A DNA stretch of 46,889 nucleotides. Origin: Acidobacteriota bacterium. GTDB lineage: Bacteria; Acidobacteriota; Blastocatellia; Pyrinomonadales; Pyrinomonadaceae. Both the position numbers and the translations under genes were made by a program. How positions within the stretch are numbered: the first letter of the stretch is position 1; the number at the start of each line of letters is the position of its first letter. The stretch covers positions 1-46,889 of the forward strand of contig JANMAD010000486.1 in assembly GCA_031359515.1 (NCBI GenBank), read 5' to 3'. The notes beneath the pieces were generated by a model that worked only from the letters and a program-made list of their open reading frames with translations, was not told the origin of the DNA and ran no database searches. This document shows, in pieces, positions 6,766 to 46,556 of the stretch.

Positions 6766-8745
6766 TTAGTAACCCGCGATCTGATTATTAGCCACTATAG
6801 TTTCCGGCGGCGGATACGCTGAGAGCAGCGCTTCTTCGCCATCAATGAATTGCCGCTGCCACATTTCAAAGTTAACGAGCGCCCAGAGTCGCTCCGTGTG
6901 GTTCTCCCCCGCTTGATGGCGGGCGACGAGGCGGCGCACGTAATGCTGATCGAACAAGCCGCGACTCGCCGCCCGCGCGCCCAACACGTATTCATCTATG
7001 ACGTGGCGGTACGGCCCGCGAAACCACGCGCCGACCGGGACGGGGAAGCCCATTTTCTTGCGCGACAGAATCGGTTCAGGCAGCACGTGCTTCATGCTCT
7101 GCCGCAGGATATATTTAGTCGTCCACCCGCGCCTTATCTTCAGGCGTTCGGGCAGGCGGGCGGTGTACTCGACGAGTTTGTGATCGAGGAATGGCACGCG
7201 GCTCTCGATGGACGCCGCCATGCTCATCTGATCCTGCTTCATCAGCAACTCGTGCAGGTACGTCTTCACATCGGCGTAGAGCATCCGGTTGAGCAGCGAA
7301 CCGGCGTCGGTCGAGTCGAAGTAGCGGCGCATGTCTGCGTAAGGCGCGATAGGGCCGACGCGCTCCTTCGTCTCTGCTGTCAACAACTCTTGCTGCATCG
7401 CGCGCGTGAAGACGGCGAAGTTGTCGAAGTAGAGACTCTCGATGTCCGGCTCAAGGCAGAGGAACGTGCGCGACAATTTGTGCCGCGCCCGCGAGTCAAC
7501 CGGCAGACTTTCAATCCGGCGGCTGACCGCGCGGCGCAAAGATGTGCTCGTCAAATTGTGATAGTGCGGGCCGAGCGCCATGTTGTAGATCGTCTTGTAG
7601 TAACGCTCGTAGCCACCGAGCATTTCATCGCTGCCCTCGCCCGTCAGCACGACCTTGACGTGGCGGGCCGCAAGTTGCGAGACGAAGTAAAGCGCGACGC
7701 TCGAAGGGTGCGCGAGCGGTTCGTCCTCGTGCCAGACGAGTTTCGGCAGCGCGGCGAAGAACTGTTCGGGGCTGACGATGATCTCATGATGATCGGTCTT
7801 GAAGGCCCGCGCCACCAACCGCGCGTACTCAAGCTCATTGGCTTCGCGCTCCTTGAATGCAACCGAGAATGTCTTGACGGGCGCGTCAACCATGCCGCTC
7901 ATCACGGCGGCGATGGCCGAGGAATCGATCCCGCCCGACAGAAACATGCCAAGCGGCACGTCGGCCATCAGGCGCAGCCGAACGGACGTGCGAAAGAGCT
8001 CGTCCCACTCGGCGATGTAATCAGCGTCGCTCCGGCGATCATTTTGCCCGTTCGCCTCTGCGTCCGTGTAGCGCAAGTCCCAATACTTTTCGATCCGCAC
8101 CTGCCCGTCGCGCCAAAGCAGATGATGGCCGGGCAACAGCCGTTTGACGCCCGCGAAGAGCGTCTCTGCGGCGGATGTGCCATGGTTCGCGAGGTAATCA
8201 GGCAACGCGCCGAAGTTAATCTCCGGTGTGATGGCGTGCGCCGCGAACAACGCCTTGATCTCCGATGCGAAGTAGAGCGAGCCGTCCGGTGCGTGGACGT
8301 AGTAGAGGGGCTTGACGCCCAGACGGTCGCGCGCGATGAATAACTCGCGCCGCCGCTCGTCCCAGATCGCGAACGCGAACATCCCGCGCAAACGTTCGAC
8401 CGCGCGTGCGCCCTCTTCCTCGTAGAGGTGCAGAATCGTCTCCGTGTCGCAGTGCGTTTGATAGACATGGCCGCGCGCCTCGAGCTCAGCGCGAAAGTCG
8501 GCGTGGTTGTATATCTCGCCGTTGTAAACGATGTGCAGCGTGCCGTCCTCATTCGTCATCGGCTGATGGCCGCCCGCGACATCAACGATGCTCAAGCGCC
8601 GATGGCCGAGGCCGATCTGCGCGCCGACGTAGCTGCCGTGATCGTCCGGCCCGCGATGTCTGATCACGTCGCGCATCCGTTCGAGCGTGCGCACGTCCAC
8701 GCGCCCCGCCCCCGCCGCTAAAGCTATGCCATTAATACCGCACAT
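6766..8745 (-). CDS. AsnB-family glutamine-dependent amidotransferase, paralog 1
   Basis: 659 aa. N-terminal nucleophile MCGI, RGPDD, GEIYN, and PP-loop LSGGIDSSAIAAVM. Confidence 0.85.
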   Translation of the reverse strand: MCGINGIALAAGAGRVDVRTLERMRDVIRHRGPDDHGSYVGAQIGLGHRRLSIVDVAGGHQPMTNEDGTLHIVYNGEIYNHADFRAELEARGHVYQTHCDTETILHLYEEEGARAVERLRGMFAFAIWDERRRELFIARDRLGVKPLYYVHAPDGSLYFASEIKALFAAHAITPEINFGALPDYLANHGTSAAETLFAGVKRLLPGHHLLWRDGQVRIEKYWDLRYTDAEANGQNDRRSDADYIAEWDELFRTSVRLRLMADVPLGMFLSGGIDSSAIAAVMSGMVDAPVKTFSVAFKEREANELEYARLVARAFKTDHHEIIVSPEQFFAALPKLVWHEDEPLAHPSSVALYFVSQLAARHVKVVLTGEGSDEMLGGYERYYKTIYNMALGPHYHNLTSTSLRRAVSRRIESLPVDSRARHKLSRTFLCLEPDIESLYFDNFAVFTRAMQQELLTAETKERVGPIAPYADMRRYFDSTDAGSLLNRMLYADVKTYLHELLMKQDQMSMAASIESRVPFLDHKLVEYTARLPERLKIRRGWTTKYILRQSMKHVLPEPILSRKKMGFPVPVGAWFRGPYRHVIDEYVLGARAASRGLFDQHYVRRLVARHQAGENHTERLWALVNFEMWQRQFIDGEEALLSAYPPPETIVANNQIAGY

Positions 8746-8754
8746 AAAAAATTT

Positions 8755-11256
8755 TCAGTCGCCCCGCACCGACGTTGCGCCGGTCAACTCGAGCTCAGCC
8801 CGCCCCGCCGCCACAAGCGGGCGCGGCGGCCCGTCATTCAATCTTACGCGCCGCGCCCCGCCCAACGCGATGAATAAATCAGCGCCCGCGTCACTTTCAA
8901 CATACCACTCTTCGCCCACGCGCCGCGCGACGATACGGCTGACGCGCGCCGACGCACGCACAACCTCCTGCCCGTCCATCTGCAAGAAACTCCCGTCAAG
9001 CAAAATAAGCTCGACGGGCGCTGTCGCATCCACGCGCGCGAAACGTGCCCACGCCCAAGCGAAGTCCGTTGCGCAGCGCGCAAACTCGACCACATCGCCG
9101 TCTTTAATCGCCGCGCAGTCGCGCCAACCGTCCACTTCTAACTCGAACGCGCGCCCGCCCGTCGCTGCTATCGTACGCGCCCGCGTATGCCCCGATTGCG
9201 CGGCGCGTGGGATCAATAGTGTAACGAACTCCTGCGTGCCCACGCCTGTCGCCGAATATGTGCAGACCTGCGCGGGCGTGCGCGTCGCATAGCACGAAGA
9301 TACCCAGTCTCCCGCGCAATTCCAACTGCCCGCGCCACCAAAGGTGAGCACATCGCAACTTGGCTGTCCGGCGGGCGCGGTGCGCACTATCGTCCCCTCT
9401 TCATCAGTCGCAAGCGCAGGCTCCGCTCCCGGCGCGTAATGGAAATGGAGTTGATAGACGTGTGCGCCCGCCGTCGCCACGCGGTCGCGCACGATCCAGT
9501 AATCGCCCTTGAGGAAGAGCAAGCTGCGCGCGTGCGTTGCAGGCGACGCGAGCCGCGCGTAGCCGTCATGCTCGCCCGCGAAAAAATCGTAGCGCGGATA
9601 ACTTTCCCACTTGTGCGCAGTCGCCTGCGCAGTCTGTGTCCAACTGAAGGGGCCGGCCGGCACGGACGACGATTGCCCGTCAATGGTCAGCGTGTTATGC
9701 GCCGCGGTCGAACGAAAATGGTCGCGCAATTCCCGCGCACCGGTGTAAGTGTAAGTGCCGGGATCGACGAGCAGCGTGCGCCCGCGTGCTGCCACGTCAA
9801 ACGAAAGTACATCCGCGTGTGCGTGCGCGCCGAGGTCTCCGTGCGGCCCGCAGTCAAGCATCATGTAATTCGCAGCGCGCGTCCACCCATCGCGCATCAC
9901 GTAATAGCCGCCGTCCGTGAACGCGCGCGAACCTTGCGCCGGAGTTTTGGCCGCCAGTTCATAGAAGCGTTGGAGGCCGGTGCGCCCCGTAAGCCACAAG
10001 GTCTCTTCCGCCGCTTCACCCGCCACAAACTTGTAATCGCCGCGCCCGATGAGGGCCGCGCCCGTTGAGAGCGTCGCGCGAAAGTCATCGGCCGCGCCGT
10101 CGTCGAGCAGCGCGAGCCGCCCGCCGTCGTCGTCGCCGAAGAGCGGAGTAGTACCGTCCGGGCGCGTCGCATGCATCAGGAAGTCGAGCAGCGCGATCAG
10201 CTTGCTGCGCAGTTGTGGATCGGGCGGCGCGTCGTTAGCTTCAGAGAGGGCAGCCAAGTGCAGATAAAAGTCCGCGGTGTATCGTTGATAGTAAGTTGAC
10301 TGCTCGAAGTAAACACCGTCCGGTCTAATCTGCCGCTCAAGTTGTGCGCGCAGGATGCGCTCACCGGTTGCGCGCCAGCGTTGTCCCGCGCGGAATTCGG
10401 GGAACAGTGTGCCGACGTAATAGAGACCGAGTGCCTCGCCGGTCAGGTGCGTGTTCGGGCTGAAGTAGGTTGAGAGATAGGTTTCGAGATGGCGCGCGTG
10501 CAGGTAGATGAATTTCAAGAGCCGCGTGAAGAACTGCGGCGTGAGGTGCGGTGAATCCCGAAAGAAGTAGAGCGCCCAGAGCCATGAGATGAGCCGGAAT
10601 GAGACTTCCAGACTGCTCGCCCAGTTGATGCCAAGCTTCGGCGGGTTATGCTCCATCCAATCGCTTGCGTGCGCGACGAAGGTCGCGGCGAACTCTTCGT
10701 CGCCGGTGTACCAGTAAGCGCGCCCGAGCGTCTGAAAATATTGTTGCCGATTCAACTCCCACGTCACCTTTTTATCGCCGGCGGCTTCAGGATCGAGATA
10801 ATTGATGCGACTCCAGTGAGAGAGCGGCGCGCTTTTGCCTGCGACGGGTTCGAGTTGCCAGTTGATGGGCGAGCCGAAACTGAGATCGGTCAAGCCGAGC
10901 AGAGCGAACCGGCCGCTGACGATCTTGCGTGCGCGTGCGAGCAAGATGGTTTCGTTGCGGGGCGCGAAGCGTTGGCGCAGTTCCGCGCGCGTCGCGGCCG
11001 GCTCGGCGAACGCGGCGAAGAAGTGCGGCGCAGTGCGTGTGTGGAAGTGCGCGAGCAGAGTTTCGGCGGAGAGCGCGCCGCTGGGCATGCGTGCGGGGTT
11101 GAACCGGCGGAAGAATGCAGCGTCGGCAGGCACGCGCGTCAGCGGCGACAGCCCGCTGCGCTCAGCCAGCGCGGACGCCGCTTGCAGCCCGCGCACGCGC
11201 AGTTCCGCAAGGCTGCGCCCTTTCAACTTCCCCAGTTTTTTTAGTATAGCTGTCAT
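8755..11256 (-). CDS. Heparinase II/III-like protein (N-terminal alpha/alpha toroid plus C-terminal beta domain), no signal peptide seen
   Basis: WELNRQQYFQTLGRAYWYTGDEEFA and INWASSLEVSFRLISWLWALYFF (Hepar_II_III_N-like), then GDLGAHAHADVLSFDV (Hepar_II_III-like). The longest ORF starts at a TTG (11295) and overlaps the upstream gene. The ATG at 11256 gives MTAILKKLGKLKGRSLAELR, a typical N-terminus for this family. Confidence 0.7.
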   Translation of the reverse strand: MTAILKKLGKLKGRSLAELRVRGLQAASALAERSGLSPLTRVPADAAFFRRFNPARMPSGALSAETLLAHFHTRTAPHFFAAFAEPAATRAELRQRFAPRNETILLARARKIVSGRFALLGLTDLSFGSPINWQLEPVAGKSAPLSHWSRINYLDPEAAGDKKVTWELNRQQYFQTLGRAYWYTGDEEFAATFVAHASDWMEHNPPKLGINWASSLEVSFRLISWLWALYFFRDSPHLTPQFFTRLLKFIYLHARHLETYLSTYFSPNTHLTGEALGLYYVGTLFPEFRAGQRWRATGERILRAQLERQIRPDGVYFEQSTYYQRYTADFYLHLAALSEANDAPPDPQLRSKLIALLDFLMHATRPDGTTPLFGDDDGGRLALLDDGAADDFRATLSTGAALIGRGDYKFVAGEAAEETLWLTGRTGLQRFYELAAKTPAQGSRAFTDGGYYVMRDGWTRAANYMMLDCGPHGDLGAHAHADVLSFDVAARGRTLLVDPGTYTYTGARELRDHFRSTAAHNTLTIDGQSSSVPAGPFSWTQTAQATAHKWESYPRYDFFAGEHDGYARLASPATHARSLLFLKGDYWIVRDRVATAGAHVYQLHFHYAPGAEPALATDEEGTIVRTAPAGQPSCDVLTFGGAGSWNCAGDWVSSCYATRTPAQVCTYSATGVGTQEFVTLLIPRAAQSGHTRARTIAATGGRAFELEVDGWRDCAAIKDGDVVEFARCATDFAWAWARFARVDATAPVELILLDGSFLQMDGQEVVRASARVSRIVARRVGEEWYVESDAGADLFIALGGARRVRLNDGPPRPLVAAGRAELELTGATSVRGD

Positions 11257-11272
11257 CAACCGTGCTCTTCTC

Positions 11273-11935
11273 TTACACCGCTTCGACCCGTTCAACCTGC
11301 AATTCCTGCGGCGGCACAGACTCTCTTGCCAGCGCCGCGAGCGCCGCCTGCCGTGCGGGATCGTCCTCGCGATTCTGGTAGAAGATTAGATCAAACGATC
11401 CCTTGCGTGAGATGACGCGCGCCGGATTGCCGACGGCGACGCCGCGCGGCGGCACCGAGCGCGTGACGATTGCGCCCGCCCCGATCACTGCGTCATCGCC
11501 GACGACCACGGGGCCGATAATTACTGCGCCGGGGCCGATGTAGACGCGGTCGCCGATCACCGGCGATTCGACGAGCGTCTTAGTCCCGCCGCCGCCGTGC
11601 CCGATGGTGACGCCTTGCGTCAGCGTGCAATGGCGACCGATGCGCACGCCCGGCCCGACCACGATGTAGCCGGAATGCGGGATGAGGAGACCCGGCCCGA
11701 TCTCCGCGCCGGCCGGCAACTCGATCTGCGTCGCGACATCGAGCCAGACGTTGCCGACGACGATGAGGCGTTGCAACAGGAGGCGCGCAAACTTCGACAT
11801 GGGCGCGGTGTAAACCCAACGCGCGAAGCGGTGGCCGACAATCGCCCAGACACGCGGGTAGAAGAGCATGGCGCGCAGTTGTTCGCGCCCGCCCGCGCCA
11901 TAGCGGTTTAGGTCTTCGCGTATGTGCTCGAACAT
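11273..11935 (-). CDS. Left-handed beta-helix (hexapeptide repeat) O-acetyltransferase, serine-acetyltransferase-like
   Basis: 220 aa, ATG start. Hexapeptide run GVRIGRHCTLTQGVTIG ... IGDRVYIGPGAVIIGPVVVGDDAVIGAGAIVTRSVP. Confidence 0.75.
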   Translation of the reverse strand: MFEHIREDLNRYGAGGREQLRAMLFYPRVWAIVGHRFARWVYTAPMSKFARLLLQRLIVVGNVWLDVATQIELPAGAEIGPGLLIPHSGYIVVGPGVRIGRHCTLTQGVTIGHGGGGTKTLVESPVIGDRVYIGPGAVIIGPVVVGDDAVIGAGAIVTRSVPPRGVAVGNPARVISRKGSFDLIFYQNREDDPARQAALAALARESVPPQELQVERVEAV

Positions 11936-14647: not shown

Positions 14648-16579
14648 TCAGACCAATGCGCCATCAGCGTGGACGTGCGCCTGCGCGCTGGCCGCAGACG
14701 AAATTTCGGCTGCGCCGCTTGCTTCGGTTTGCTCGTGCCGCAGCCACGTTTCGAGCACGAAGATGTACCAGAGTTGATTCGGCACGAAGCCGCGCGCCGC
14801 CGTGCGCGCGAGCAGTTCACGCGCCGCGCCTGCGCGCAGCCAACCGCGTTGCTCGACCAATGAATCGGTCAACAACTCTTCGAGTCGCGCACGCCAACGC
14901 CCCGCCAGCCAACGCTGCACGGGCACGCCGAAGCCGCGTTTGCGCCCGCGCGCCACACGCTCGCCCAAGTGTCGCCGCGCCAACTCGCGCAGGATCGCTT
15001 TCAACTGCCCGCCGCGCAGACGCACGTCGTAAGGCAAGCGCGCGGCGTATTCCCACAATGCTTGATCGAGGAACGGCGAGCGCGCTTCAAGCGCATAGTG
15101 CATCGTCGCGCCGTCAACCTTCGGCAAGTATTCGCCGACGAAGCGCGTGCGGCGATCATATGCAAGGAAGTCTGTCAGCGCTTGCCGCGCCGAAGCGGGC
15201 GACAGAGGGATCAGGCGTTGCGCCACGGTCGCGTCACGCAAACGCTCGCCAAGCAAACCGTGTCGTTGATAGACGGGTAGGCCGTCGTGCGCGTTTGCGA
15301 TTGCGCCGAGTCCGCCGGTCGCGTAGTTGAGCAACGAAGCGGCGCGGCGCAAAGGGCCGACGCGCGGGAGGTGTCGCCCGTTGGCGAGCCACACACGCGC
15401 GCCGCTCGCGGGCAGGCGACGCGCGAGCCGTTGGGCTAAATAGAAATGTTTATGCTCCGGGTAGCCGAGAAACACGTCGTCGCCGCCGTCGCCCGTGAGC
15501 AGCACCGTCGCTTCGCCCGCAACGGCGCGCGAGACGCGCAACATGCCGAGCGCGGACGCGCAGGCGAACGGTTCAGCGTAAGCTGTGACCTGTTCCTCAA
15601 CCGACGGCGCATCATCGGCCGACAATTCAAGCACCCGATGCTTGATGCCGAGTGCGGCGGCTGTTGCGCGTGCGTCGTCGGTTTCATCCCACGCATCGCC
15701 GGGCGTGCCGATAGTGTACGCCGTCACGTCGCCGCCGAGTTGCGCAATCGCCCAGCAGACGAGGCTCGAATCCACGCCGCCGCTCAAAAGTGCGCCGACC
15801 GGCACGTCCGCAAACAGACGCGCTTCGACCGCACGCAGGAATAATCGTTCCGTCTCTTCAACCGCTTCAGCGAATGACGGCGTGGCAGTTTGTTCAATGA
15901 CGGGCGGAGTCCAGTACGTGCGCGTCTGTGCGCCGGTAGCGGCCGACCATTCGACGATTGCGCCGGCCGGCACTTTCGTCGCGCCCTGATAGATCACACG
16001 CTCGTCGGGCACGTAACCGAATTCGAGATAATCAACCACCGCCTGCTCATCGAGTTCGCCGACAAAATTGGCGCGACGGAGCGCACGCACGGTCGAAGCG
16101 AACGCGATCCGTTTGTCCGCGCCCAGCGCATAGATGAGCGGCTTGACGCCGAGCCGGTCGCGCACGAGGAAGAGTTTTTGCGCCTCCTCGTCCCACAGAC
16201 CGAAGGCGAACATCCCGCGCAGACGCGCGACCAATTCATCAATGCCCCACGCGCGATAACCTTGAATGAGAACTTCCGTGTCGGTCTGACTGTGAAAATT
16301 ATACCCGCGCGCGGCAAGCTCAGCGCGCAACTCGCGGAAGTTATAGATCGCGCCGTTGAAGGTCACGCCGATGCGCTGGTCGGCCGCGAGCATCGGCTGA
16401 CGGCCCGCCGCGCTCAGATCGAAAATCGCCAAGCGCCGATGACCGAGGACGCACGCGGGCCATGCCTCCAATCCTTCACCGTCGGGGCCGCGCCGCGCGA
16501 GCGCGCACGTCATCAGACCCACCGCGTCCTGCGCCGCGCGCTGATCGTCAAAGCCTGCGATACCTGCGATGCCGCACAT
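14648..16579 (-). CDS. AsnB-family glutamine-dependent amidotransferase, paralog 2 (most divergent)
   Basis: 643 aa. MCGIAGI, RGPDG, GAIYN, and PP-loop LSGGVDSSLVCWAI. Confidence 0.85.
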   Translation of the reverse strand: MCGIAGIAGFDDQRAAQDAVGLMTCALARRGPDGEGLEAWPACVLGHRRLAIFDLSAAGRQPMLAADQRIGVTFNGAIYNFRELRAELAARGYNFHSQTDTEVLIQGYRAWGIDELVARLRGMFAFGLWDEEAQKLFLVRDRLGVKPLIYALGADKRIAFASTVRALRRANFVGELDEQAVVDYLEFGYVPDERVIYQGATKVPAGAIVEWSAATGAQTRTYWTPPVIEQTATPSFAEAVEETERLFLRAVEARLFADVPVGALLSGGVDSSLVCWAIAQLGGDVTAYTIGTPGDAWDETDDARATAAALGIKHRVLELSADDAPSVEEQVTAYAEPFACASALGMLRVSRAVAGEATVLLTGDGGDDVFLGYPEHKHFYLAQRLARRLPASGARVWLANGRHLPRVGPLRRAASLLNYATGGLGAIANAHDGLPVYQRHGLLGERLRDATVAQRLIPLSPASARQALTDFLAYDRRTRFVGEYLPKVDGATMHYALEARSPFLDQALWEYAARLPYDVRLRGGQLKAILRELARRHLGERVARGRKRGFGVPVQRWLAGRWRARLEELLTDSLVEQRGWLRAGAARELLARTAARGFVPNQLWYIFVLETWLRHEQTEASGAAEISSAASAQAHVHADGALV

Positions 16580-20069: not shown

Positions 20070-20070
20070 A

Positions 20071-21015: not shown

Positions 21016-21021
21016 TCCAAC

Positions 21022-21774: not shown

Positions 21775-21792
21775 AGTTTGTCCTCGCGTGCC

Positions 21793-33991: not shown

Positions 33992-33995
33992 GGAT

Positions 33996-34058
33996 CAGAG
34001 GTCAGAGGGCAGAGGTCAGTCAAGTCAGCTTCGCACTAACCTCTAACCTCTGACCTCT
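33996..34058. repeat. Heptamer-tandem inverted repeat hairpin (CAGAGGT-type) at a gene junction
   Basis: The left arm is CAGAGGT CAGAGGG CAGAGGT CAG. The right arm is AACCTCT AACCTCT GACCTCT. 18 of 21 positions pair (33997-34017 with 34038-34058) around a 20-nt loop. It fills the gap between the stop at 34063 and the start at 33991. Confidence 0.75.
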
Positions 34059-34062
34059 ACTT

Positions 34063-35877: not shown

Positions 35878-35960
35878 AACAACTGATCTTGTGAGTCGGC
35901 AATCGCGGGGAAAACTATGCCATACGCCGCGAGAAATCAAGCGCCGAAGCGCCGCGCCGG

Positions 35961-36926: not shown

Positions 36927-36950
36927 AAAGTGAATTTCTCTGCTCCGCTG

Positions 36951-38210: not shown

Positions 38211-38218
38211 AACGAATG

Positions 38219-38286
38219 AGCTGTTAGCTGTTAGCTGTTAGCTGTTAGCTAAAAACAAAAGGCTGAGAGCTAACAGCTAATAGCTA
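38219..38286. repeat. Heptamer-tandem inverted repeat hairpin (AGCTGTT x4.6 opposed to AGCTAAC AGCTAAT AGCTA)
   Basis: The left arm is (AGCTGTT)x4 plus AGCT (38219-38250), followed by a 17-nt loop. The right arm is 38268-38286. The last 19 nt of the left arm pair with the right arm with one mismatch. The right arm includes the TAG stop of the 38284-38937 gene. The left arm ends 8 nt before the ATG at 38210. Confidence 0.8.
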
Positions 38287-38937
38287 TACCTGCGCCACGA
38301 TCAGATAATCGCGATCCAGATTGATCCATTCATACTGCTGCACGCCCGCGTCGGCCAGAATTTGTTTGACCTGCTGTTCGCGATAGAGAAAGAGCGGCGT
38401 GCCTTTGAGCATGAAGCGCACGCGCCGGACAGGCACGCGCCATTCGATTGCTTTCGGGAAACTCATAATCATCGTGCCGCGCGTCATCTCGCGCATGCGG
38501 GCGATGATCGGCACAGGATGTTCGATGTAGTCGAAGAAGCCGTTGGCGGTGCTGGCGTCGAACGGGCCCGCGTTGGCGACCGCATCGGGGAACGCGCCCG
38601 CGATGAACTCGCAGCGATCCGCGACCCCGGCCGTGCGCGCGATGTCGTTGGCAATGTCAATCATCGCAACGGCGAAGTCCACGCCGACGACGTGCGCCGC
38701 GCCGCGCTCGGCATACGCGATGCAAAAGCGCCCTGAGCCGCAGCCGACATCAAGGATCGTCTTGCCCTTGATCGGTTCTAATTTCTCCAAATTCAATTCC
38801 AACCGTTTGCGCACGACGCCGCGCCACCAGTTATCAATAAAGCGTGTGACCAAGCCTTTGCGCTCGTCGTAGATCGCGTCGAAGCGTTGCGCATCGGCGT
38901 GAAAATGTTCGCGCACCTTCTGTTCAACTTGCGACAT
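38284..38937 (-). CDS. Class I SAM-dependent methyltransferase (4 of 5)
   Basis: 217 aa. Motif I ILDVGCGSGRFCIAYAERGAAHVVGVDFA. 14-nt overlap with the upstream deacetylase gene. Confidence 0.75.
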   Translation of the reverse strand: MSQVEQKVREHFHADAQRFDAIYDERKGLVTRFIDNWWRGVVRKRLELNLEKLEPIKGKTILDVGCGSGRFCIAYAERGAAHVVGVDFAVAMIDIANDIARTAGVADRCEFIAGAFPDAVANAGPFDASTANGFFDYIEHPVPIIARMREMTRGTMIMSFPKAIEWRVPVRRVRFMLKGTPLFLYREQQVKQILADAGVQQYEWINLDRDYLIVAQV

Positions 38938-39760
38938 TGAGCACCTCTTTCATCGGAGCAAATTTGAAATCGCGCAACAGCCGCCGCAAACGACGCTCGG
39001 TCGCGCGCAGATTAAAGTAGTGGGTCAAGCCGGCGACGCGGCGGGGCAACTTGATGCGCGGGTGATCCGGATCAAGTTCCCACGGATGCAGGTAGAAGAC
39101 GAACGGGCGGTGCGCTCGATTGACCGCGCGCAAACCCTGCTTCGTGAACGCATACGGATAGATGCGGAAGTACGCGCCGCCCGCGATAGGCACGTTCTTA
39201 CCCAAGACCTGCCACGTCGAGATCGGGAATTCGGTGAGCGTGTGCCGCTCGGATTTAATCTCATAAGGCCAACGCGGCGCGTCGGCGATGCCATAGCGAT
39301 AGTTGACCACGGGGAAGATGCTCGAATCGTAGCGGATGCCTAGCTCGGCGAGGATGTCGAGCGCCCACAGCGAGTCTTTCGTGATCGAAAAGAACGGCGC
39401 GCGATGGCCTAGCACACGTGCGCCCGTCAGGTCTTCGAGCGTGCCGATGGCGCGCGTCAACTCCGTGCGAAACAGTTCCGGCGTCTGCTCGTAGATGAGC
39501 GCGTGCGAGTAGCCGTGCGTGCCGATCTCGTGCCCGGCCGCCGCGATCTCGCGGATCATCTCTGGATGCTGCTCGGCGATGTAGCCAAGCACGAAGAAAG
39601 TTGCGCGCACGCCTGCATCAGCCAGCAACTGCAACAAGCGACGGCCCACCGGCACGATGCGATCTTCAAAGCCGGCCCAATCCTTATAAGGAATCTCCAA
39701 GCCTTGATACCAATCCTCGAAATCAATCGTCAGCGCGTTAGTAACTTGTGTGTTATTCAT
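38924..39760 (-). CDS. Polysaccharide deacetylase (CE4/NodB fold), PEP-CTERM-locus-like subfamily
   Basis: 278 aa. ALTIDFEDWYQG near the N-terminus, FFVLGYIAEQHPEMIREIAAAGHEIGTHGYSH, and FVFYLHPWELDPDHP. Confidence 0.8.
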   Translation of the reverse strand: MNNTQVTNALTIDFEDWYQGLEIPYKDWAGFEDRIVPVGRRLLQLLADAGVRATFFVLGYIAEQHPEMIREIAAAGHEIGTHGYSHALIYEQTPELFRTELTRAIGTLEDLTGARVLGHRAPFFSITKDSLWALDILAELGIRYDSSIFPVVNYRYGIADAPRWPYEIKSERHTLTEFPISTWQVLGKNVPIAGGAYFRIYPYAFTKQGLRAVNRAHRPFVFYLHPWELDPDHPRIKLPRRVAGLTHYFNLRATERRLRRLLRDFKFAPMKEVLNVAS

Positions 39761-39800
39761 CCTAAATTGGGTGTGGCGCGGTTATGATCACGGAAGCAAC

Positions 39801-40148
39801 TTACGCCTGCCGGCCTTCAAGCGCTTCAATGCGGTCAACTACTTCCTCATGCTCGCGCCGAATGTGATGCAAGTCCTGCCGGAACATACGCATCTCATAC
39901 TTCGTGTCTCTGAAATCTTCCTGCAACCGCGCCAACTTCGCTTCCATTCGCGCGCTACGCTCATCTAAACGAGTAACGCGCTCATCCAAGCGCATTACGA
40001 TCTCGTTTAAGTTTGTGACGGCCTCGCTCAAGCGTGCGACCACGGCAGGCAAGTCTTCCAGTTCCTTGACGCTCTCGCGCAATGCGCCGACATCGCGACT
40101 GATGGCGCTGACGTAGTTGAGGATTTCGGCGGTGCGATCTGTGCTCAT
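39801..40148 (-). CDS. Small coiled-coil protein of unknown function
   Basis: The ATG at 40148 is preceded by AAGGAG with 7-nt spacing, the strongest SD I saw in the window. 115 aa. Heptad-like RLDERVTRLDERSARMEAKLARLQEDF. No hydrophobic segment. Confidence 0.55.
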   Translation of the reverse strand: MSTDRTAEILNYVSAISRDVGALRESVKELEDLPAVVARLSEAVTNLNEIVMRLDERVTRLDERSARMEAKLARLQEDFRDTKYEMRMFRQDLHHIRREHEEVVDRIEALEGRQA

Positions 40149-40181
40149 GGTTTTTCTCCTTAGGTGAGATAAAGACAAAGC

Positions 40182-40946
40182 TTAGCGACTATGACTCGCT
40201 TGCGTGGCGTCTTGCGCGTCGAGTTTGTTCGCGCCGGTCTCGGCCACGAGATTGGAGGCGCGCAGCAGCGACTCGAACGTGCCCGCGTCCGTCCACCAAC
40301 CGTCAAGCTCGTCCCACGTCATCGTGCCGCGCGCGATGTAAGCGTTATTCACATCCGTGATCTCCAACTCGCCGCGCCCCGACGGTTTGAGCGTCTTGAT
40401 GATCTGGAAGACTTCCGCGTCGTACATGTAGATGCCGATGACGGCGTAGTCCGACTTCGGCTCCTGCGGCTTCTCCTCGATACGCACGACACGCTGCCCA
40501 TCCAACTCCGGCACGCCGAAGCGTTGCGGGTCATGGACCTTCTGCAACATGATCTTCGCGCCGTCGCCCTGCTGCCGGTAGGCGCGCACGGCTTGGCAGA
40601 TATTCTTCTCGATGATGTTGTCGCCGAGGACGACGCAGATCGACTCGCCGTCGGCGAAGTCTTCGACGAGCGCAAGCGCCGCCGCGATGCCGCCCTCGCC
40701 TTCCTGATAGGTATAGTTGATGTGTTTCAACCCGAACGCCCGGCCATTCTTCAAGAGGCGGAGAAAATCGCCGGCCGAATTGCCGCCCGTCACGATCATG
40801 ATATCCGTGATGCCCGCGTTGACCAGCGTCTCAATCGGGTAATAGACCATCGGCTTGTTATAGACCGGCAGCAGATGCTTATTCGTCACCTCCGTCAGCG
40901 GCCTCAGCCGCGTCGCCAAGCCCCCGGCCAATACGACACCTTTCAC
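40182..40946 (-). CDS. Sugar-1-phosphate nucleotidyltransferase (short RmlA-like, glucose-1-phosphate thymidylyl/uridylyltransferase family)
   Basis: 254 aa. GTG start preceded by GAGGAGG. MKGVVLAGGLATRLRPLTEVTNKHLLPVYNKPMVYYPIETLVNAGITDIMIVTG. Confidence 0.8.
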   Translation of the reverse strand: MKGVVLAGGLATRLRPLTEVTNKHLLPVYNKPMVYYPIETLVNAGITDIMIVTGGNSAGDFLRLLKNGRAFGLKHINYTYQEGEGGIAAALALVEDFADGESICVVLGDNIIEKNICQAVRAYRQQGDGAKIMLQKVHDPQRFGVPELDGQRVVRIEEKPQEPKSDYAVIGIYMYDAEVFQIIKTLKPSGRGELEITDVNNAYIARGTMTWDELDGWWTDAGTFESLLRASNLVAETGANKLDAQDATQASHSR

Positions 40947-41051
40947 GCTACTCGCCTCCTCGTCAAAGAATCAGTCGGCCGCACCCGCGCACCGCCTCTT
41001 AGAGCGCCAGTCGCCACAGCGCAAAAGTTCCTGTCGCGCCTAACTAACTTG

Positions 41052-42026
41052 CTAACCTTTTGGGACTAACTGCCGCTGCGCACCCTTATAATAAGCGACC
41101 ATGTCTTTAGGTGCGATCTCGTGCTCGGCACGCCGCCCGAGAAAGAAAACGCCTGAAGCGTTGTCCACTTGAAAGCCGATGGGGGCGAACCGGTCGAGAT
41201 AGCTCAACCAGAACATTGACGCCTTCAACAATGTGCCCATCCGTGGCGAGCGGAACAGGCTGCGGCCGACGTAATCTATCGTCCACAACAATTGTGTGCC
41301 GGAACCGCCGGAGATGCCGGAATCGATCAACCCGAACCGCTTGAACAGGTAGCGGTGGCCGCTCTCGGTGAAGCGAGTTAAGTCATACGGCCCCAAATGC
41401 ACCTGTTGCATGAATGGCGTATCAGCATAGACGAGGCCATCTTTTTTGAGCACGCGGTGAATCTCCGTCACCACCTGCCACGGGTCGAGCACGTGCTCCA
41501 GCACCGCTTGAACCACCACGGCATCAACACTCGCATCGCGCAACGGAATCTGATGCCCATCGGCGATGAACTGCGTCACTGGCGTGCCATAAACGTCGAA
41601 GCCAATGACCCTGACTGCCGGATCGTCGTACAAGGCATCAATGCCGCTGCCGACCGTGCCGCCACCCACAACCAGCACAGTCGGGTTGCCGGCAGTCTCT
41701 TTTAAGTTGCCTAACAGCCGGGCAATGTTCTTCGCCGCGACGGCATTGGGCGGGAACATTACACTGAGGAGCTTTTGCTTTAACCCGCGCTTCCCCCCGG
41801 TGGCATTTTCGGCCACACAGCTATTTGCAACTTCGGTCTCGGCTAGGATACTCCGGCTGAAATCAACCAGCACCGGCCATTGCCGCACAATCCGGAAGCT
41901 CGCATGGCCGGCGTAAGTGCAGGCTGAGTCCGTACAGTTATACCCCTGTGGGGTGCGGACTAAAGCGGCGCGGCAACGCGGGCAACACAACAACGGCTCA
42001 ACTTCCGCCAAGCTTAACAGACCCAT
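41052..42026 (-). CDS. Class I SAM-dependent methyltransferase with N-terminal zinc-ribbon-like CxxC...C module (5 of 5)
   Basis: 324 aa. LLCCPRCRAALVRTPQGYNCTDSAC, then VLVVGGGTVGSG motif I and VDAVVVQAVLEHV. Confidence 0.7.
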   Translation of the reverse strand: MGLLSLAEVEPLLCCPRCRAALVRTPQGYNCTDSACTYAGHASFRIVRQWPVLVDFSRSILAETEVANSCVAENATGGKRGLKQKLLSVMFPPNAVAAKNIARLLGNLKETAGNPTVLVVGGGTVGSGIDALYDDPAVRVIGFDVYGTPVTQFIADGHQIPLRDASVDAVVVQAVLEHVLDPWQVVTEIHRVLKKDGLVYADTPFMQQVHLGPYDLTRFTESGHRYLFKRFGLIDSGISGGSGTQLLWTIDYVGRSLFRSPRMGTLLKASMFWLSYLDRFAPIGFQVDNASGVFFLGRRAEHEIAPKDMVAYYKGAQRQLVPKG

Positions 42027-42088
42027 ATCGCATCTTCCACGCCAAGATTTCAGGAGCGAGCAATAATCTCATTCTTAGCGCACGCTGA

Positions 42089-42110
42089 CAAAGGCCGGAG
42101 CACGCCTTTG
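42089..42110 (-). terminator. Short hairpin just downstream of the beta-helix gene stop (weak terminator/attenuator candidate)
   Basis: CAAAGGC (42089-42095) pairs with GCCTTTG (42104-42110) over an 8-nt loop. No U-tract follows on the transcribed strand. Confidence 0.2.
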
Positions 42111-42126
42111 CCCAATGAAGGGCAAT

Positions 42127-44637
42127 CTATCTGACATCCAGCGCCCGGCTGACCTCCTCCAACTCGACGCCATCGGGCGAAATGAACTTAACAATGTCCA
42201 CCTTGCGTGCGCCCGTGCTGAGCTTCGGCGGCGTTCCGCCCGCCCAGCGGACGTTCGACCAGATGATCGTCCGGCCGCCGCTTGTGTCCTGCGCCACGCG
42301 CAGAATGTACTCGCCACCCGCCGCCAGATGTATGAACGCGAGCCTCGTCACGTTGCCCGTCAGCGTGATGGTGTGAACGTTGCCCTGCGCGAAGTCGAGC
42401 GTGAGCGCGCTGGCAAATGTGTCGGTCCTAAGCGGTGAAAAGATCGTGCCGCCGACCGTCAACCCGCCCACTTCCAGATTCCCGCGCCCGCCCGCGCCAT
42501 CTGTTATTTTGAGCGTGTTGACCGCCGAGCGGGTCAGCCCCGTGTCGAAGCTTCCGCCAATGTAGGCAATCCCATTCGGCAGCCAGAGCTTGTGGCCGCC
42601 CTGCGCTGCCGGCGAACCGGAGAAAGCGAAGATGGAGTTGCCTTGATCGGTGGCGTAGTTCGTGCCGATGCTGCCGCCGTGATAGAAGTTGTACCAGCCC
42701 GGCGCTAGTTGGTTGTAGCCAAACTGGAAGGGATAGCGATCAAGGCGCGTATTTGTCCCGCCCCCGGCCGTGTTGCCTATATCTTCCGCCGCGCCTAAAC
42801 CAAGCAGCGTGTTCGGCTGTAGTTGTGAACCGCCGATGCCGATGCCGAAAGGCTTAGTTGTGCCGCCGCCCATGGCGTTGATCTGCGCGCTGTCTAAGCG
42901 TGTCCATCCGTTGCTGTGATCCATCGCCCCGCCCGCAGCTAAGGTGACGCCTGATCCATGTACGCCGCCCTGCACCATCGAATAAGCGTTCGCAAGGGCC
43001 GAAGGCTCGCCGCTCTCCTCGTAGGCATTGATCCAAGAGGAAAGATTGACCGTGCCCTGAATGGAGTAAAACCCACCCCAAAAGTTGCCGCTCGCATGGT
43101 TGTTCAGATAGTGATTGCCTAAGAAACTAAACTCGGCGAAGCCACTGCCGTAGTTGTTGCTCGCGTCGTTACTTTCAAAGGCAATTTGATTGGCGTCGTT
43201 GCCGCGTGCATACGTGCCGTTGCCAGCGCAATTCTGAAACACGCTCCGGCCCACACGCGAGACGTTCATATTTGCACCCGCAAAGCCAAACGACGAGTCG
43301 AGGTTCAAGCAATTGCCCGCGAAGTTATCCACCGTGACATTGGAGACTTCTATCTGCACGCGGCTGTCGAGGCCGTGGAATAGGTTTGGCCGGACAGCAA
43401 TTGCGCTCGCCGCTGTGCCGCCGCTAATAGCAGTGTCTGCCATGTAACAGTCAGTCGCGCTGAAAGCCCCACAGATGAAGCTGGACGTGTTGTCTGTCAG
43501 GCCGCGCACGTTGCTCGCGAGCGTAATGCGCCCGTAGGCATTTGAGCCGTTTTGGATGCGGTTATTTACCGCGCTGATAGTGTAGTTTGTGCCACCGATA
43601 TTAACCGTGTTGCCCACGAACCATGACGACAGATGACTATTCCCCGACCCGATAACATTGTAGAGGTATGGCGATCCGTTCTTGGCGATCAGCAGCACCC
43701 GCGGGGCCTGCAAGACAACATGATCGGTGTCGGTGAACGTATCGATCATCCAATGGTAAGCGTCTGTATCCGAGTTATTGACTGTGATCGTGTTGCCGCC
43801 ATGATAACCGCCTGCGTCGCTAAAGGCCGGGCCGGTGACGCGCGTTAGAATTAACCCTGCAATCATCGCCGTGTGTGTGGTTGCGCCCTGCGCGCCAGTA
43901 ATGCGTAAGTTTTTGATCGTGCTGCGATCTGACAGCCGGCCGGCATTCACCCCGGTTTTAGTGGCAAACCTATGAAAGACCACGCCGGCCGTATTTGGCG
44001 CAAAGCGGAGTTGCGGCCGCATGTAGCCAGTGCCGCTACCTAAGCCCTCTAACAACATCGTCGCGTCAATGTTCCACGTCCCGCTCAAGTAATGCGACTT
44101 GGCGATCACGACGTGCGCCGGCAGGGGCGTCTGAATGGCGGCGGTCAGCTTGTCGAAGGCTGGCAGATCGTCCGTGCCGGTCGTGCCATTCCAGTTACCG
44201 ACCGCGCCGAACCATTCAGGGAATAGCTGATCGGGTAGATTGCCGGTAAACGCCGGTTGCCCCGCACCGCAAAAGATTTGATAACGGCCGGCATCAATGT
44301 CGCCGGTCTGGATCGTGTAATTGCCAGGCGCGTTCAAACAGCCGCCGCGTTCTATCTTTAGCCTGATCGTCGCCGGTATAACCTGCCCCGGCGCTACCGC
44401 CTGAGAGTTTGAAATAACAAGCGTTTTGTTAGATGTTGCCGTAATTGCCGCCGCGAAACTGGCGTAACTGGCGGCGTTCGTCTCGGTCACGCGCTGCTCG
44501 TTACTCCCTGCTACTGTCTGGCCGGTCAACGCCGCGGGCGACGCGCTGCCGCCTTGCGCCTTGATTGAAGCGGCGAGGGTGATGGACAGCAGCGAGAGGG
44601 CGGCGGCGCGGATAAGACTCCGGGTAGGATTTATCAT
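42127..44637 (-). CDS. Secreted large beta-helix protein with pectate-lyase-3 / tailspike-like N-terminal domain (candidate polysaccharide depolymerase or modifier)
   Basis: The ATG at 44637 gives the signal-like peptide MINPTRSLIRAAALSLLSITLAASIKAQG. FPEWFGAVGNWNGTTGTDDLPAFDKLTAAI matches the F-GA-GDG-TDD-AF pattern of Pectate_lyase_3 domains. The protein is Gly/Asn/Thr/Ser-rich and repetitive. The longer ORF to 44721 overlaps the AsnB gene. Confidence 0.6.
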   Translation of the reverse strand: MINPTRSLIRAAALSLLSITLAASIKAQGGSASPAALTGQTVAGSNEQRVTETNAASYASFAAAITATSNKTLVISNSQAVAPGQVIPATIRLKIERGGCLNAPGNYTIQTGDIDAGRYQIFCGAGQPAFTGNLPDQLFPEWFGAVGNWNGTTGTDDLPAFDKLTAAIQTPLPAHVVIAKSHYLSGTWNIDATMLLEGLGSGTGYMRPQLRFAPNTAGVVFHRFATKTGVNAGRLSDRSTIKNLRITGAQGATTHTAMIAGLILTRVTGPAFSDAGGYHGGNTITVNNSDTDAYHWMIDTFTDTDHVVLQAPRVLLIAKNGSPYLYNVIGSGNSHLSSWFVGNTVNIGGTNYTISAVNNRIQNGSNAYGRITLASNVRGLTDNTSSFICGAFSATDCYMADTAISGGTAASAIAVRPNLFHGLDSRVQIEVSNVTVDNFAGNCLNLDSSFGFAGANMNVSRVGRSVFQNCAGNGTYARGNDANQIAFESNDASNNYGSGFAEFSFLGNHYLNNHASGNFWGGFYSIQGTVNLSSWINAYEESGEPSALANAYSMVQGGVHGSGVTLAAGGAMDHSNGWTRLDSAQINAMGGGTTKPFGIGIGGSQLQPNTLLGLGAAEDIGNTAGGGTNTRLDRYPFQFGYNQLAPGWYNFYHGGSIGTNYATDQGNSIFAFSGSPAAQGGHKLWLPNGIAYIGGSFDTGLTRSAVNTLKITDGAGGRGNLEVGGLTVGGTIFSPLRTDTFASALTLDFAQGNVHTITLTGNVTRLAFIHLAAGGEYILRVAQDTSGGRTIIWSNVRWAGGTPPKLSTGARKVDIVKFISPDGVELEEVSRALDVR

Positions 44638-44672
44638 GGATAGGTGCGGCGGCAGGTTATGTTGCCACGCGG

Positions 44673-46556
44673 CTAATCGATGAACCGCTGAAACCAAAGC
44701 TCCAGCATCAGCAGCGTCCATAGTTGGTGCGCGTGATCCTTCTGCCGCGCCGTGTGCTCGTCTACGAGGCGCGCGACGGCGACGGGCTTAAACAGGCCGC
44801 GCTTGAGGCTGCGCTCCGACAACAGCGTCTCGCGCAAGAAGCCTTGCAACTCGCCGCGCAGCCAGTGTGTGATCGGCACGCCAAAACCCATCTTGCGCCG
44901 GTCGATATTCTCGGCGGGCAACAGTTTCCGCAGCACGCGCTTCAACAGGTACTTCGTCGTCAAGCCGCGCAGCTTGTAACGCTCCGGCAAGCTCGCGGCA
45001 AACTCGATGACGTGGTGATCGAGAAACGGCGAACGCGCTTCGAGCGAGACGGCCATCGTGGCGATGTCCACCTTGACGAGCAGATCGTTCGGCAGGTACG
45101 TCATCGTGTCCGTCAAGAGCGCGGCGTCCACCACGCCCGCGCCGTTGACGCTGGCGAACCACGGCGCGAGTTGATCGACCGACTCATGCCCGTTCAACTG
45201 CCGGCGGAAGTTGTCCGTGTACAACTCGTCCTTCGCGCCGCGATCCAGCACGCTCACCCAGCGCGCGTAGCGCTCAACCGTCGGCAGCGAGGCGGCCTTG
45301 ATGAAACGCTGCAAATCGCGCACGCGACTACGGCGCAACTCGGAACTCGGCAACAGGCTAATCGCCTGCTCGATCACACCTGCGCGCAACGCGCCGGGCA
45401 GACGGCGATAGCGTTCCGCCATCCGCATCGCCGCGTAGCGCTCATAACCCGCGAAGCATTCGTCGCCGCCGTCGCCGTTCAAAGCGACGGTGACGTGCCG
45501 GCGCGTCTCGCGGGCCACGTAGTAGGTCGGGATCGCGGACGAGTCGGCGTAAGGCTCGCCGTAGTGCTCGACGAGCGTCGGGAGAATTGCGAGCGCGTCG
45601 GGGCGGACGATGAACTCGTGATGCTCCGCGCCGACGTGCTCGGCGACGCGCCGCGCGTGGTGCAGTTCGCTAAAATCTTGCTCCTCGAAACCGATGGCGA
45701 AGGTCTTGACCGGCGTGCTGCTCACCTCGCTCATCAGCGCGACGACCGTGCTTGAATCAATCCCACCGGAGAGGAACGCGCCGAGCGGCACTTCCGACAT
45801 CAGCCGCACACGCACGGCATCGCGCAACAACTCGACCACGCGCTCGCCCGCTTCTTCTTCGCTCAGCTTCACCTTCTTAGTGAAGTCGGGTTGCCAGTAG
45901 CGTTCGAGCTTGATCTCGCCCGTGCGCGTGAAGCGCAGAGAATGGCCCGGCTCAAGTTTTTTGATCTGCCGGTAAGCGGTCAACGGCGCGGGCACGCACA
46001 TGAACGAAAGATAATGGTGGATCGCTTCGGGCAGCACTTCGCGTCCGATGTCCGGGTGCAGCAGGAGCGCGCTGAACTCCGAGCCGAAGATAAGCTGATC
46101 GCCGACATGCGCGTAGAGCAGCGGCTTTTTGCCGACGCGGTCGCGGGCGAGAAACAGCTCCTCTTTGCGCTCGTCCCAGATGGCGAAGGCGAACATGCCG
46201 CGTAAGTGTTTCGGGCAGTCCGCGCCGTATTGCTCGTAGGCGTGGACAATCGCTTCGGTGTCGCTGTCGGTGTAGAACTCGTGGCCGAGTTTTTCGAGTC
46301 GCTCGCGCAGTTCTTTGTAGTTATAGATTTCGCCGTTGAAAACGATCCACGCCGAGCGATCCTCGTTGTGCATGGGCTGTTGCCCGCCGGCCAGATCGAT
46401 GATGGCGAGACGACGCATAGCGAGGCCCGCGCGGCCGTTGAGATAGTGTCCCTCTTCATCAGGGCCGCGATGGCGGATCGCGTCGCACATGCGCTGCAAC
46501 AGGTCTGCGTCCACCGCGCGGTCGCGCCCGCGCACCATGCCTACGATGCCACACAT
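44673..46556 (-). CDS. AsnB-family glutamine-dependent amidotransferase, paralog 4
   Basis: 627 aa. MCGIVGM, RGPDE, GEIYN, and PP-loop LSGGIDSSTVVALM. Closest by eye to paralog 3. Confidence 0.85.
   Translation of the reverse strand: MCGIVGMVRGRDRAVDADLLQRMCDAIRHRGPDEEGHYLNGRAGLAMRRLAIIDLAGGQQPMHNEDRSAWIVFNGEIYNYKELRERLEKLGHEFYTDSDTEAIVHAYEQYGADCPKHLRGMFAFAIWDERKEELFLARDRVGKKPLLYAHVGDQLIFGSEFSALLLHPDIGREVLPEAIHHYLSFMCVPAPLTAYRQIKKLEPGHSLRFTRTGEIKLERYWQPDFTKKVKLSEEEAGERVVELLRDAVRVRLMSEVPLGAFLSGGIDSSTVVALMSEVSSTPVKTFAIGFEEQDFSELHHARRVAEHVGAEHHEFIVRPDALAILPTLVEHYGEPYADSSAIPTYYVARETRRHVTVALNGDGGDECFAGYERYAAMRMAERYRRLPGALRAGVIEQAISLLPSSELRRSRVRDLQRFIKAASLPTVERYARWVSVLDRGAKDELYTDNFRRQLNGHESVDQLAPWFASVNGAGVVDAALLTDTMTYLPNDLLVKVDIATMAVSLEARSPFLDHHVIEFAASLPERYKLRGLTTKYLLKRVLRKLLPAENIDRRKMGFGVPITHWLRGELQGFLRETLLSERSLKRGLFKPVAVARLVDEHTARQKDHAHQLWTLLMLELWFQRFID

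Follow-up and report, generated by a model that had tools for sequence, protein, structure and literature searches.

Four diverged AsnB-type amidotransferases, probable uronic acid-amidating enzymes, in adjacent surface-glycan modules of a Pyrinomonadaceae-like acidobacterium

The stretch of DNA analysed here (the window) is contig JANMAD010000486.1 of assembly GCA_031359515.1, 46,889 nucleotides long, and comes from a Pyrinomonadaceae-like soil acidobacterium. It has the gene content of a surface-polysaccharide locus and encodes four AsnB-type glutamine amidotransferases, named here Asn1, Asn2, Asn3 and Asn4 (AsnB paralogs 1 to 4). The explanation that we favour, with a probability of about 0.6, is that the four intact enzymes amidate uronic acids and have separate roles; the acceptor and the functional separateness are both inferred, on the strength of conserved residues, orthology and synteny. 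Genes for AsnB-like amidotransferases are a hallmark of polysaccharide loci of the exosortase/PEP-CTERM type; to our knowledge, the substrate of the exosortase-associated (TIGR03108) enzymes has never been shown biochemically.

In the proposed reaction, the N-terminal Cys would hydrolyse glutamine, the PP-loop domain would adenylate a carboxylate using ATP, and the freed ammonia would attack the acyl-adenylate to give a primary amide. The need for ATP and glutamine places the reaction in the cytoplasm, on a nucleotide-sugar or lipid-linked intermediate, and the likeliest acceptors would be the C6 carboxyls of uronic-acid residues. For Asn1 the likely acceptor is mannuronate from the adjacent AlgD-like dehydrogenase, installed by the neighbouring family 4 glycosyltransferases (GT4s). 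Since the paralogs form old orthologue groups with their own active-site signatures and their own conserved neighbours, the residue or assembly step served is probably a different one for each. Asn1, Asn2 and Asn3 would act in a variable Wzx/Wzy exopolysaccharide (EPS) module, whereas Asn4 would belong to a module of its own, which is better conserved and centres on a WecA-like initiating transferase. It is for Asn4 that the acceptor is hardest to name, because its module has no uronate-forming enzyme; this paralog may contribute to a linking or core glycan, or may even act outside glycan synthesis.

Integrity and divergence of the four paralogs

The four open reading frames (ORFs) that an earlier note on this DNA had described as intact AsnB-type genes were all found, on the minus strand, with complete domains and catalytic residues. 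Each encodes a full-length GATase_7 and Asn_synthase pair in Pfam. The N-terminal GATase_7 domain (PF13537) was detected at E-values from 7e-43 to 3e-51, and Asn_synthase (PF00733) covers profile positions 2–354 of 354 at E-values from 2e-69 to 4e-116, which excludes chance. In the alignment, the motifs MCGI, RGPD and SGG(I/V)DSS are present in all four, as had been claimed; the GEIYN motif listed with them does not extend to Asn2, which reads NGAIYN instead of NGEIYN.

The critical residues of E. coli AsnB were taken from PMC4659947, and positions are given in E. coli AsnB numbering. They were checked in 120 sequences each for Asn2, Asn3 and Asn4 (window copy included) and in a 70-sequence clade for Asn1; the D384 and K376 columns were left out, because the alignment is unreliable across the insertion described below. 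Cys1, Arg49, Asn74, Gly75, Asp98, the PP-loop, Gly347, Asp351, Tyr357 and Lys449 are conserved in every group, and the PP-loop residues Ser234, Gly235, Gly236 and Asp238 are invariant in all of them. The sole exception to the invariance of the adenylate site is an Asp351Gly change in one Asn4 orthologue, and no orthologue with a called N-terminus lacks Cys1. From this conservation we infer that the four paralogs are working glutamine-dependent, adenylate-forming amidotransferases. Decay into pseudogenes was rejected, given the intact ORFs and conserved catalytic residues. The database gene call for Asn4 (P0241) is 621 aa long and starts six codons late, so that the catalytic Cys is lost; the MCGI start is supported by 627-aa orthologues.

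Asn1 was the only paralog modelled, and its AlphaFold (AF2) model had a predicted local distance difference test (pLDDT) value of 88.2 and a predicted template modelling (pTM) score of 0.89. Foldseek matched the model to the hydroxyamidotransferase TsnB9 (7ylz) at E 3e-34 and to E. coli AsnB (1ct9) at E 9e-30, with target-normalised TM-scores from 0.81 to 0.86.

Pairwise identity among the paralogs ranges from 31% to 50%, with Asn2 the most distant (31–36%), which bears out the divergence noticed earlier. Orthologues were compared in related loci and contigs, designated by L-numbers, of which L001 (GCA_038322995.1) is the closest to the window. In addition, species-representative genomes were scanned with Asn1, which yielded 80 loci that were annotated against the window proteins; 72 of these have an Asn1-type gene. 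Orthologues of Asn1 share 93% (L001), 75% (L005) and 68% (L002) identity with it, and 41–76% across the 72 loci; the syntenic ones span 41–93%. For each of the other paralogs 119 orthologue clusters were collected, at 66–100% identity for Asn2, 67–78% for Asn3 and 77–96% for Asn4, the most conserved of the four. The best matches are named Pyrinomonadaceae or Blastocatellia (Acidobacteriota), every paralog having a conserved orthologue group in Pyrinomonadaceae, and a lookup of the exact Asn1 sequence returned no matching record.

In a neighbour-joining (NJ) tree of the core members (at least 45% identity), Asn1, Asn2 and Asn4 formed clades with bootstrap values of 98%, 100% and 96%, respectively. 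Asn3 and Asn4 grouped together at 88%, and Asn3 alone reached 38%, for which reason Asn3 is probably paraphyletic to Asn4. In the full NJ tree of 153 taxa the support for the exact-set clades was low (7–28 of 49 replicates), owing to distant rogue sequences.

The groups also differ at fixed positions of the catalytic site. The Asn1 clade has Glu348 in 70/70 sequences and Thr346 in 69/70. Asp348 is found in the Asn2, Asn3 and Asn4 groups and in two proteins named XrtA amidotransferases by the Prokaryotic Genome Annotation Pipeline (PGAP), from plasmid records of Sphingomonas and Vibrio replicons, which served as stand-ins for that family. The Asn4 group has Asn346. The Asn2 group carries Ala76 (E76A), Asp352 (E352D) and Leu232 in 120/120 sequences, with E348D fixed as well, and Lys replaces the E. 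coli Arg387 in all four paralogs. These group-specific differences fit a divergent specificity, without proving it. A recent duplication was rejected, as the earlier note had argued: identity is only 31–50%, and each paralog has its own orthologue group, with the core-clade bootstrap values and fixed active-site differences given above.

The residues of Asn2 also bear on a very improbable alternative, in which one paralog, Asn2 being the best candidate, does different chemistry, either with another nitrogen donor or nucleophile, as in the hydroxamate synthesis of TsnB9, or on a carboxylate other than that of a sugar, for example on an acyl or amino-acid substituent. The E76A change lies in the glutamine pocket and is invariant in the group together with E348D and E352D; TsnB9 is the nearest solved structure for all four paralogs; and the locus encodes an AMP-binding ligase and acyltransferases. 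However, Asn2 retains Cys1, Arg49, Asn74, Gly75 and Asp98, position 76 is outside the universal class II amidotransferase core, and Asp348 is shared with the PGAP-named XrtA amidotransferases.

Family placement and nearest known enzymes

TIGR03108 (XrtA/PEP-CTERM system amidotransferase, 'eps_aminotran_1') is the best NCBIfam model for all four paralogs, with scores of 594.8, 455.9, 728.5 and 694.4 for Asn1 to Asn4 (curated cutoff 816.9). The scores with TIGR01536 (asparagine synthase, glutamine-hydrolyzing) are 536.8, 383.2, 549.4 and 511.6 (cutoff 267.1); this is a broad model, and the database matches of all groups carry its generic name. The AsnB model NF006949 matches in three stretches, and its scores of 363, 231, 337 and 311 do not reach the cutoff of 499. 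The lasso-peptide/macrolactam cyclase models NF033535 and NF033561 gave 195–295 and 76–108, short of their cutoffs of 525 and 300; no precursor peptide gene was noted, and the setting is a glycan locus.

In full-length alignments, the paralogs share 30–43% identity with the PGAP-named XrtA amidotransferases, in the order of closeness Asn3, Asn4, Asn1 and Asn2, and Asn3 reaches 41–43% over 99% of its length. They also have in common with the XrtA enzymes a length of about 625–660 aa, the end-to-end alignment, Lys387 and, with the exception of Asn1, Asp348. The setting is likewise similar, in that the EPS locus also encodes stp1/stp2-like GT4s and a deacetylase of the XrtA type, and a relative has an exosortase and EpsI nearby. 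On the other hand, canonical XrtA loci have one copy right after xrtA, in the order deacetylase, FemAB, stp1, xrtA, amidotransferase, while the window has four copies, and Pfam and NCBIfam scans of the window ORFs found no exosortase (xrtA), FemAB-like gene or PEP-CTERM protein.

With E. coli AsnB, the paralogs share 29–34% identity in BLAST over about 60% of its length, the two-domain fold (target-normalised TM-score 0.82 to 1CT9) and the core catalytic residues. They differ from it in an insertion of about 100 alignment columns after GGYxxY, present in all four and absent from E. coli AsnB, in the lack of its loop 252–264, in the change of Arg387 to Lys in the four and of Glu348 to Asp in three, and in being encoded in a glycan operon. 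TsnB9 is the nearest solved structure of every paralog by sequence (164–271 bits) and, for the Asn1 model, also by fold (target-normalised TM-score 0.81–0.86), but this enzyme makes a hydroxamic acid in natural-product synthesis, and the paralogs give no sign of hydroxylamine chemistry. The alignment to TsnB9 extends only to about residue 390, so that no solved sequence relative covers the acceptor-binding half. Taken together, the profile scores and alignments support the placement of the paralogs with the XrtA/WbpS-type branch and not with housekeeping AsnB; a placement with the housekeeping enzymes, which the earlier note had considered fatal to its proposal, is not what these scores suggest, as TIGR03108 is the best family and NF006949 stays far below its cutoff.

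This placement bears on the improbable alternative that at least one paralog has a function outside glycan synthesis, as a real asparagine synthetase or as an amidotransferase of peptidoglycan meso-diaminopimelic acid (mDAP), like LtsA or B. subtilis AsnB. Long-form AsnB homologues do amidate mDAP, all four paralogs exceed the TIGR01536 cutoff (383–549 against 267), Asn1 keeps Glu348 and the GEGSDE motif as in true AsnB, and Asn4 lacks a uronate-forming neighbour. Opposed to this are the NF006949 scores (231–363 against 499), the coverage of only about 60% of E. coli AsnB and the insertion after GGYxxY. Besides, each gene is tightly packed in a glycan operon, with gaps of 4–9 nt, and the glycan neighbours are conserved across phyla.

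Uronamide synthesis by AsnB homologues has been shown genetically for PGN_1234/WbpS in P. gingivalis (PMC7468200) and for WbpS in H. pullorum (PMC6025236). These two papers cite King et al. 2010 for WbpS of P. aeruginosa O6 and WbqG of E. coli O121, and PMC7468200 places the uronamide-forming AsnB homologues in the eps_aminotran_1 family. Like the window paralogs, these enzymes are AsnB-type and are encoded in glycan loci beside sugar 6-dehydrogenases and glycosyltransferases, where they convert residues of the N-acetylhexosaminuronic acid (HexNAcA) type to uronamides. The likeness is one of description; their known substrates are UDP-HexNAc-uronates, whereas the local uronate source in the window is GDP-mannuronate, and they occur in one copy per locus.

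Genomic context and candidate acceptors

All long ORFs of the window but one are on the minus strand, separated by gaps of few bases. The AsnB genes are packed in the operon with gaps of 4–9 nt, and the gap between Asn3 and Asn2 is 9 nt. The earlier note had spoken of one polysaccharide locus, a description that has to be revised: the window is best read as two adjacent surface-glycan modules. Module 1, headed by Asn4, runs from 46556 down to 29293, and module 2, with the other three paralogs, from 27927 down to 18; the gap of 1.4 kb between them contains an opposite-strand gene that is conserved and encodes 107 aa. The Asn4 module of a related 5.19-Mb contig (ERZ25039485 contig_1969) is at 4.87 Mb, 1.6 Mb from the orthologues of Asn2, Asn1 and Asn3 at 3.26–3.30 Mb. 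The genes for Exosortase_EpsH and EpsI are about 6–8 kb upstream of the Asn2 orthologue in that genome, which suggests a system of the exosortase-associated kind. On a 39-kb contig from another sample, all four paralogs lie within about 33 kb and follow one another as they do in the window. The core Asn3-Asn2...Asn1 is present in L005, and three-gene cores occur in other loci as well; L001 is without Asn2. The conserved gene order of module 2 is Asn3/Asn2-GT4-GT4-...-Hep-Asn1 (Hep, heparinase II/III-like gene), and a GT4 is found immediately downstream of Asn2 in 6/6 orthologues.

The dehydrogenase next to the Asn1 segment matches P. aeruginosa AlgD (1mfz) at 533 bits, against no more than 248 bits for UDP-glucose dehydrogenases. 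This supports the earlier assignment of a GDP-mannuronate-forming enzyme. Co-location with a sugar 6-dehydrogenase is true for the module of Asn1 to Asn3 and not for that of Asn4.

The neighbourhood of Asn1 recurs as a cassette, [Asn3-like]-GT4-GT4-heparinase-like-Asn1-stp1 GT4-GDP-mannose dehydrogenase. Among the 72 loci with an Asn1-type gene, the heparinase II/III-like gene is within 10 kb of it in 51. An stp1-like GT4 occurs within 3 kb downstream in 27 of the 54 loci with enough flank, and an AlgD-like dehydrogenase within 6 kb in 26 of these 54. The cassette was found in several Acidobacteriota orders, Gemmatimonadota, Binatia, Nitrospiraceae, Acidimicrobiia, Zixibacteria, Dormibacterota, Pirellulaceae and metagenome-assembled genomes (MAGs) of Gammaproteobacteria. 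This tie of Asn1 to a mannuronate source across phyla is the strongest contextual argument for a uronic acid as the acceptor of Asn1. A literature search for heparinase plus asparagine synthase found no papers.

Two further proteins belong to the surroundings of the cassette. The heparinase II/III-like protein kept beside Asn1 across phyla has no obvious N-terminal signal peptide, and appears to be a cytoplasmic lyase- or epimerase-like protein in a biosynthetic operon. A 377-aa protein (U377; 18–1151, minus strand) matches no family and has an N-terminus that resembles a membrane anchor; in many phyla it is found again close to the Asn1/dehydrogenase cassette.

As for the number of copies, at least two AsnB-type genes are present in 34 of the 72 loci, and several loci have three. 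L037, L038 and L041 (Acidobacteriota/Vicinamibacterales MAGs) show a different three-copy layout (heparinase-like, Asn3-like, GT4, Asn3-like, Asn1, stp1 GT4, dehydrogenase), which indicates that the AsnB copy number expanded independently in other lineages. Three wbpS-like genes have been described in the 75-kb psc1 EPS cluster of Rubrivivax gelatinosus, which is syntenic with clusters of Thauera MZ1T and Rhodoferax (PMC3684757; PMC4784049), and the Bordetella wbm locus has three glutamine amidotransferases (wbmC, wbmI and wbmZ), and its product is a homopolymer of one uronamide (PMC2615507). By description, these loci resemble the window in that several AsnB/WbpS-like genes, three in each, are scattered over a single large cluster for EPS or O-antigen that also has GT4s, a deacetylase, Wzx/Wzy and a CapL-type dehydrogenase (PMC3684757, PMC4784049, PMC2615507); they differ in belonging to Betaproteobacteria and in having three copies, not four. 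The four copies, which the earlier note had taken as exceptional, are thus an increment on a published theme, and their layout is no oddity but a trait that a whole uncultured family has conserved.

Several points weigh against the amidation of uronic acids by four enzymes with separate roles. All four paralogs score under the curated TIGR03108 cutoff and pass the generic 'asparagine synthase' model TIGR01536. The AlgD-like dehydrogenase is the sole uronate-forming dehydrogenase in the window, and the Asn4 module has none. Finally, since three genes serve one uronamide in Bordetella, copy number alone does not imply diverse amidation, and the diversely amidated polymer suggested in the earlier note does not follow from four copies as such.

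The last two points lead to an alternative that is plausible but unlikely, that of redundancy or partnership, with several paralogs sharing one uronic acid as their substrate, be it as isozymes, within hetero-oligomers or by working under differing nitrogen or regulatory regimes. The Bordetella precedent (PMC2615507), the single uronate dehydrogenase of the window and the 9-nt spacing of Asn3 and Asn2 speak for it. It is opposed by the long separation of the groups and by the differences fixed in each of them, in the glutaminase at position 76 and in the adenylate site at 346, 348 and 352, as well as by the modular copy number among related loci, with Asn2 missing from L001 and Asn4 unlinked in another genome.

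Quite unlikely is a second alternative, which concerns Asn4: this paralog, possibly with the XrtA-type deacetylase, would make an amidated linking sugar that anchors exosortase-processed PEP-CTERM proteins, instead of decorating a bulk polymer. Such a role was proposed in PMC7468200 for the TIGR03108-type AsnB, VimE-like deacetylase and FemAB-like genes of XrtA loci. Canonical XrtA loci have exactly one such amidotransferase beside xrtA; Asn4 is the most conserved paralog (77–96%), and its module also encodes a WecA-like initiator, a Wzy_C protein that resembles O-antigen ligases and a deacetylase passing TIGR03006. However, the scans of the window ORFs revealed neither a FemAB-like gene nor an exosortase or PEP-CTERM protein, the exosortase of the related 5.19-Mb contig is beside Asn2 and 1.6 Mb from Asn4, and the Asn4 modules of L006 and L091 are without the deacetylase.

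Returning to uronic acid amidation with separate roles, a more specific proposal can be made for Asn1, possible but doubtful when all its parts are taken jointly. The Asn1 clade, marked by Glu348 and Thr346 and linked to the GDP-mannose 6-dehydrogenase, the stp1-type GT4 and the heparinase-like protein, may define an undescribed cross-phylum pathway to an alginate-like polymer that contains mannuronamide and is neutralised in charge; further amidation steps would come from the extra paralogs, of which Asn2, with Ala76, might use an altered nitrogen-donor site. If true, this would give exosortase-associated amidotransferases a concrete assignment. Amidation strips negative charge from uronic-acid polymers and would alter how soil biofilm matrices bind cations, hydrate and adhere. 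The most useful by-product of the analysis is the cross-phylum cassette, which ties Asn1-type enzymes to GDP-mannuronate and so offers a concrete substrate hypothesis. The host lineage is uncultured and known from metagenomes only, so that the question is not yet testable by genetics through this locus; in vitro assays could start from the locus and the cassette, which supply four enzymes of distinct sequence and GDP-mannuronate as a candidate donor.

Other genes of the window

The coordinates of the paralogs and their neighbours are collected in Table 1.

Table 1. Features of the two glycan modules, in window coordinates
Feature	Position	Strand	Remarks
GDP-mannose 6-dehydrogenase (AlgD-like)	2907..4220	-	1mfz (P. 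aeruginosa AlgD), E 5e-159, full length
stp1-like GT4 glycosyltransferase	4241..5509	-	TIGR03087-like, below cutoff
Acyltransferase_3 membrane O-acyltransferase	5539..6756	-	Pfam; 93% identical in L001
Asn1	6766..8745	-	659 aa; AsnB-type glutamine amidotransferase at the core of the cross-phylum cassette
Heparinase II/III-like protein	8755..11295	-	846 aa; 9 nt upstream of Asn1; PF16889 and PF07940; heparinase III 4mmi, E 8e-45
Hexapeptide acetyltransferase	11273-11935	-	Profile match
GT4 glycosyltransferase	11987-13195	-	Profile match
GT4 glycosyltransferase	13408-14820	-	Profile match
Asn2	14648..16579	-	Most divergent AsnB paralog, 643 aa
Asn3	16589..18547	-	AsnB paralog, 652 aa; GTG start
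Variable centre of module 2	18552..26396	-	Wzx-type flippase, three GT2s (family 2 glycosyltransferases), methyltransferases, Wzy_C protein
Conserved 107-aa gene at the module boundary	28813..29136	+	76% identical to L090:970-1293
Rest of module 1, downstream of Asn4	29293..44721	-	Pfam/NCBIfam annotation
XrtA-type polysaccharide deacetylase	38924-39760	-	TIGR03006 score 316.5, passes cutoff 276.2
Asn4	44673..46556	-	AsnB paralog, 627 aa; heads a separate glycan module

From 44721, module 1 encodes an 864-aa protein of no known family, a methyltransferase, an RmlA-like nucleotidyl (NTP) transferase, the deacetylase, a second methyltransferase, a GT4 and an epimerase/dehydratase, followed down to 29293 by the WecA-like initiating transferase, a protein with tetratricopeptide repeats and a carbohydrate-binding module (TPR/CBM), the Wzy_C protein and the AMP-binding ligase. 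This order is kept after the Asn4 orthologues in L006, L007 and L091, with the deacetylase missing from the Asn4 modules of L006 and L091. The initiating transferase (34063–35940, minus strand) is a fusion of a WecA/MraY-type Glycos_transf_4 domain to a CoA_binding_3 region, the latter matching EPS polyprenyl glycosylphosphotransferases in their N-terminal part (positions 1–216 of TIGR03025), and the fusion is conserved in L006, L007 and L091.

The 864-aa ORF right after Asn4 (42127–44721, minus strand) matched nothing in Pfam, NCBIfam or PDB; L007 has a counterpart of 707 aa, and none is present in L091 and L006. An equivalence with the 904-aa protein beside the exosortase in L004 was considered and rejected, the two sequences being unrelated.

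At the module boundary, the 107-aa protein has an HLxxCDFCDAE zinc-finger motif like those of anti-sigma factors and is encoded by the only convincing plus-strand gene of the window; genes for 107-aa proteins are at the same position in L005, L006 and L090. It is adjoined by a 404-aa protein (26713–27927, minus strand) without a Pfam or NCBIfam match, 79–80% identical in L002 and L005, and the two may be a regulatory pair. A scan of the boundary for promoters and terminators found no more of them than in shuffled sequence, and an Rfam scan of the window gave no matches.

The comparison of the window with L001 revealed a mosaic of identities: 88–96% for the Asn4 module, 84–93% for the segment with the heparinase-like protein, Asn1, acyltransferase and stp1-like GT4, 78% for Asn3 and 64% for one GT4. 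The centre at 18552–27927 is swapped relative to L001:1–9911, with Wzx/Wzy, GT2s and methyltransferases in the window and an ABC transporter (Wzm/Wzt), FdtA and DegT in L001, in what looks like a serotype-style cassette replacement.

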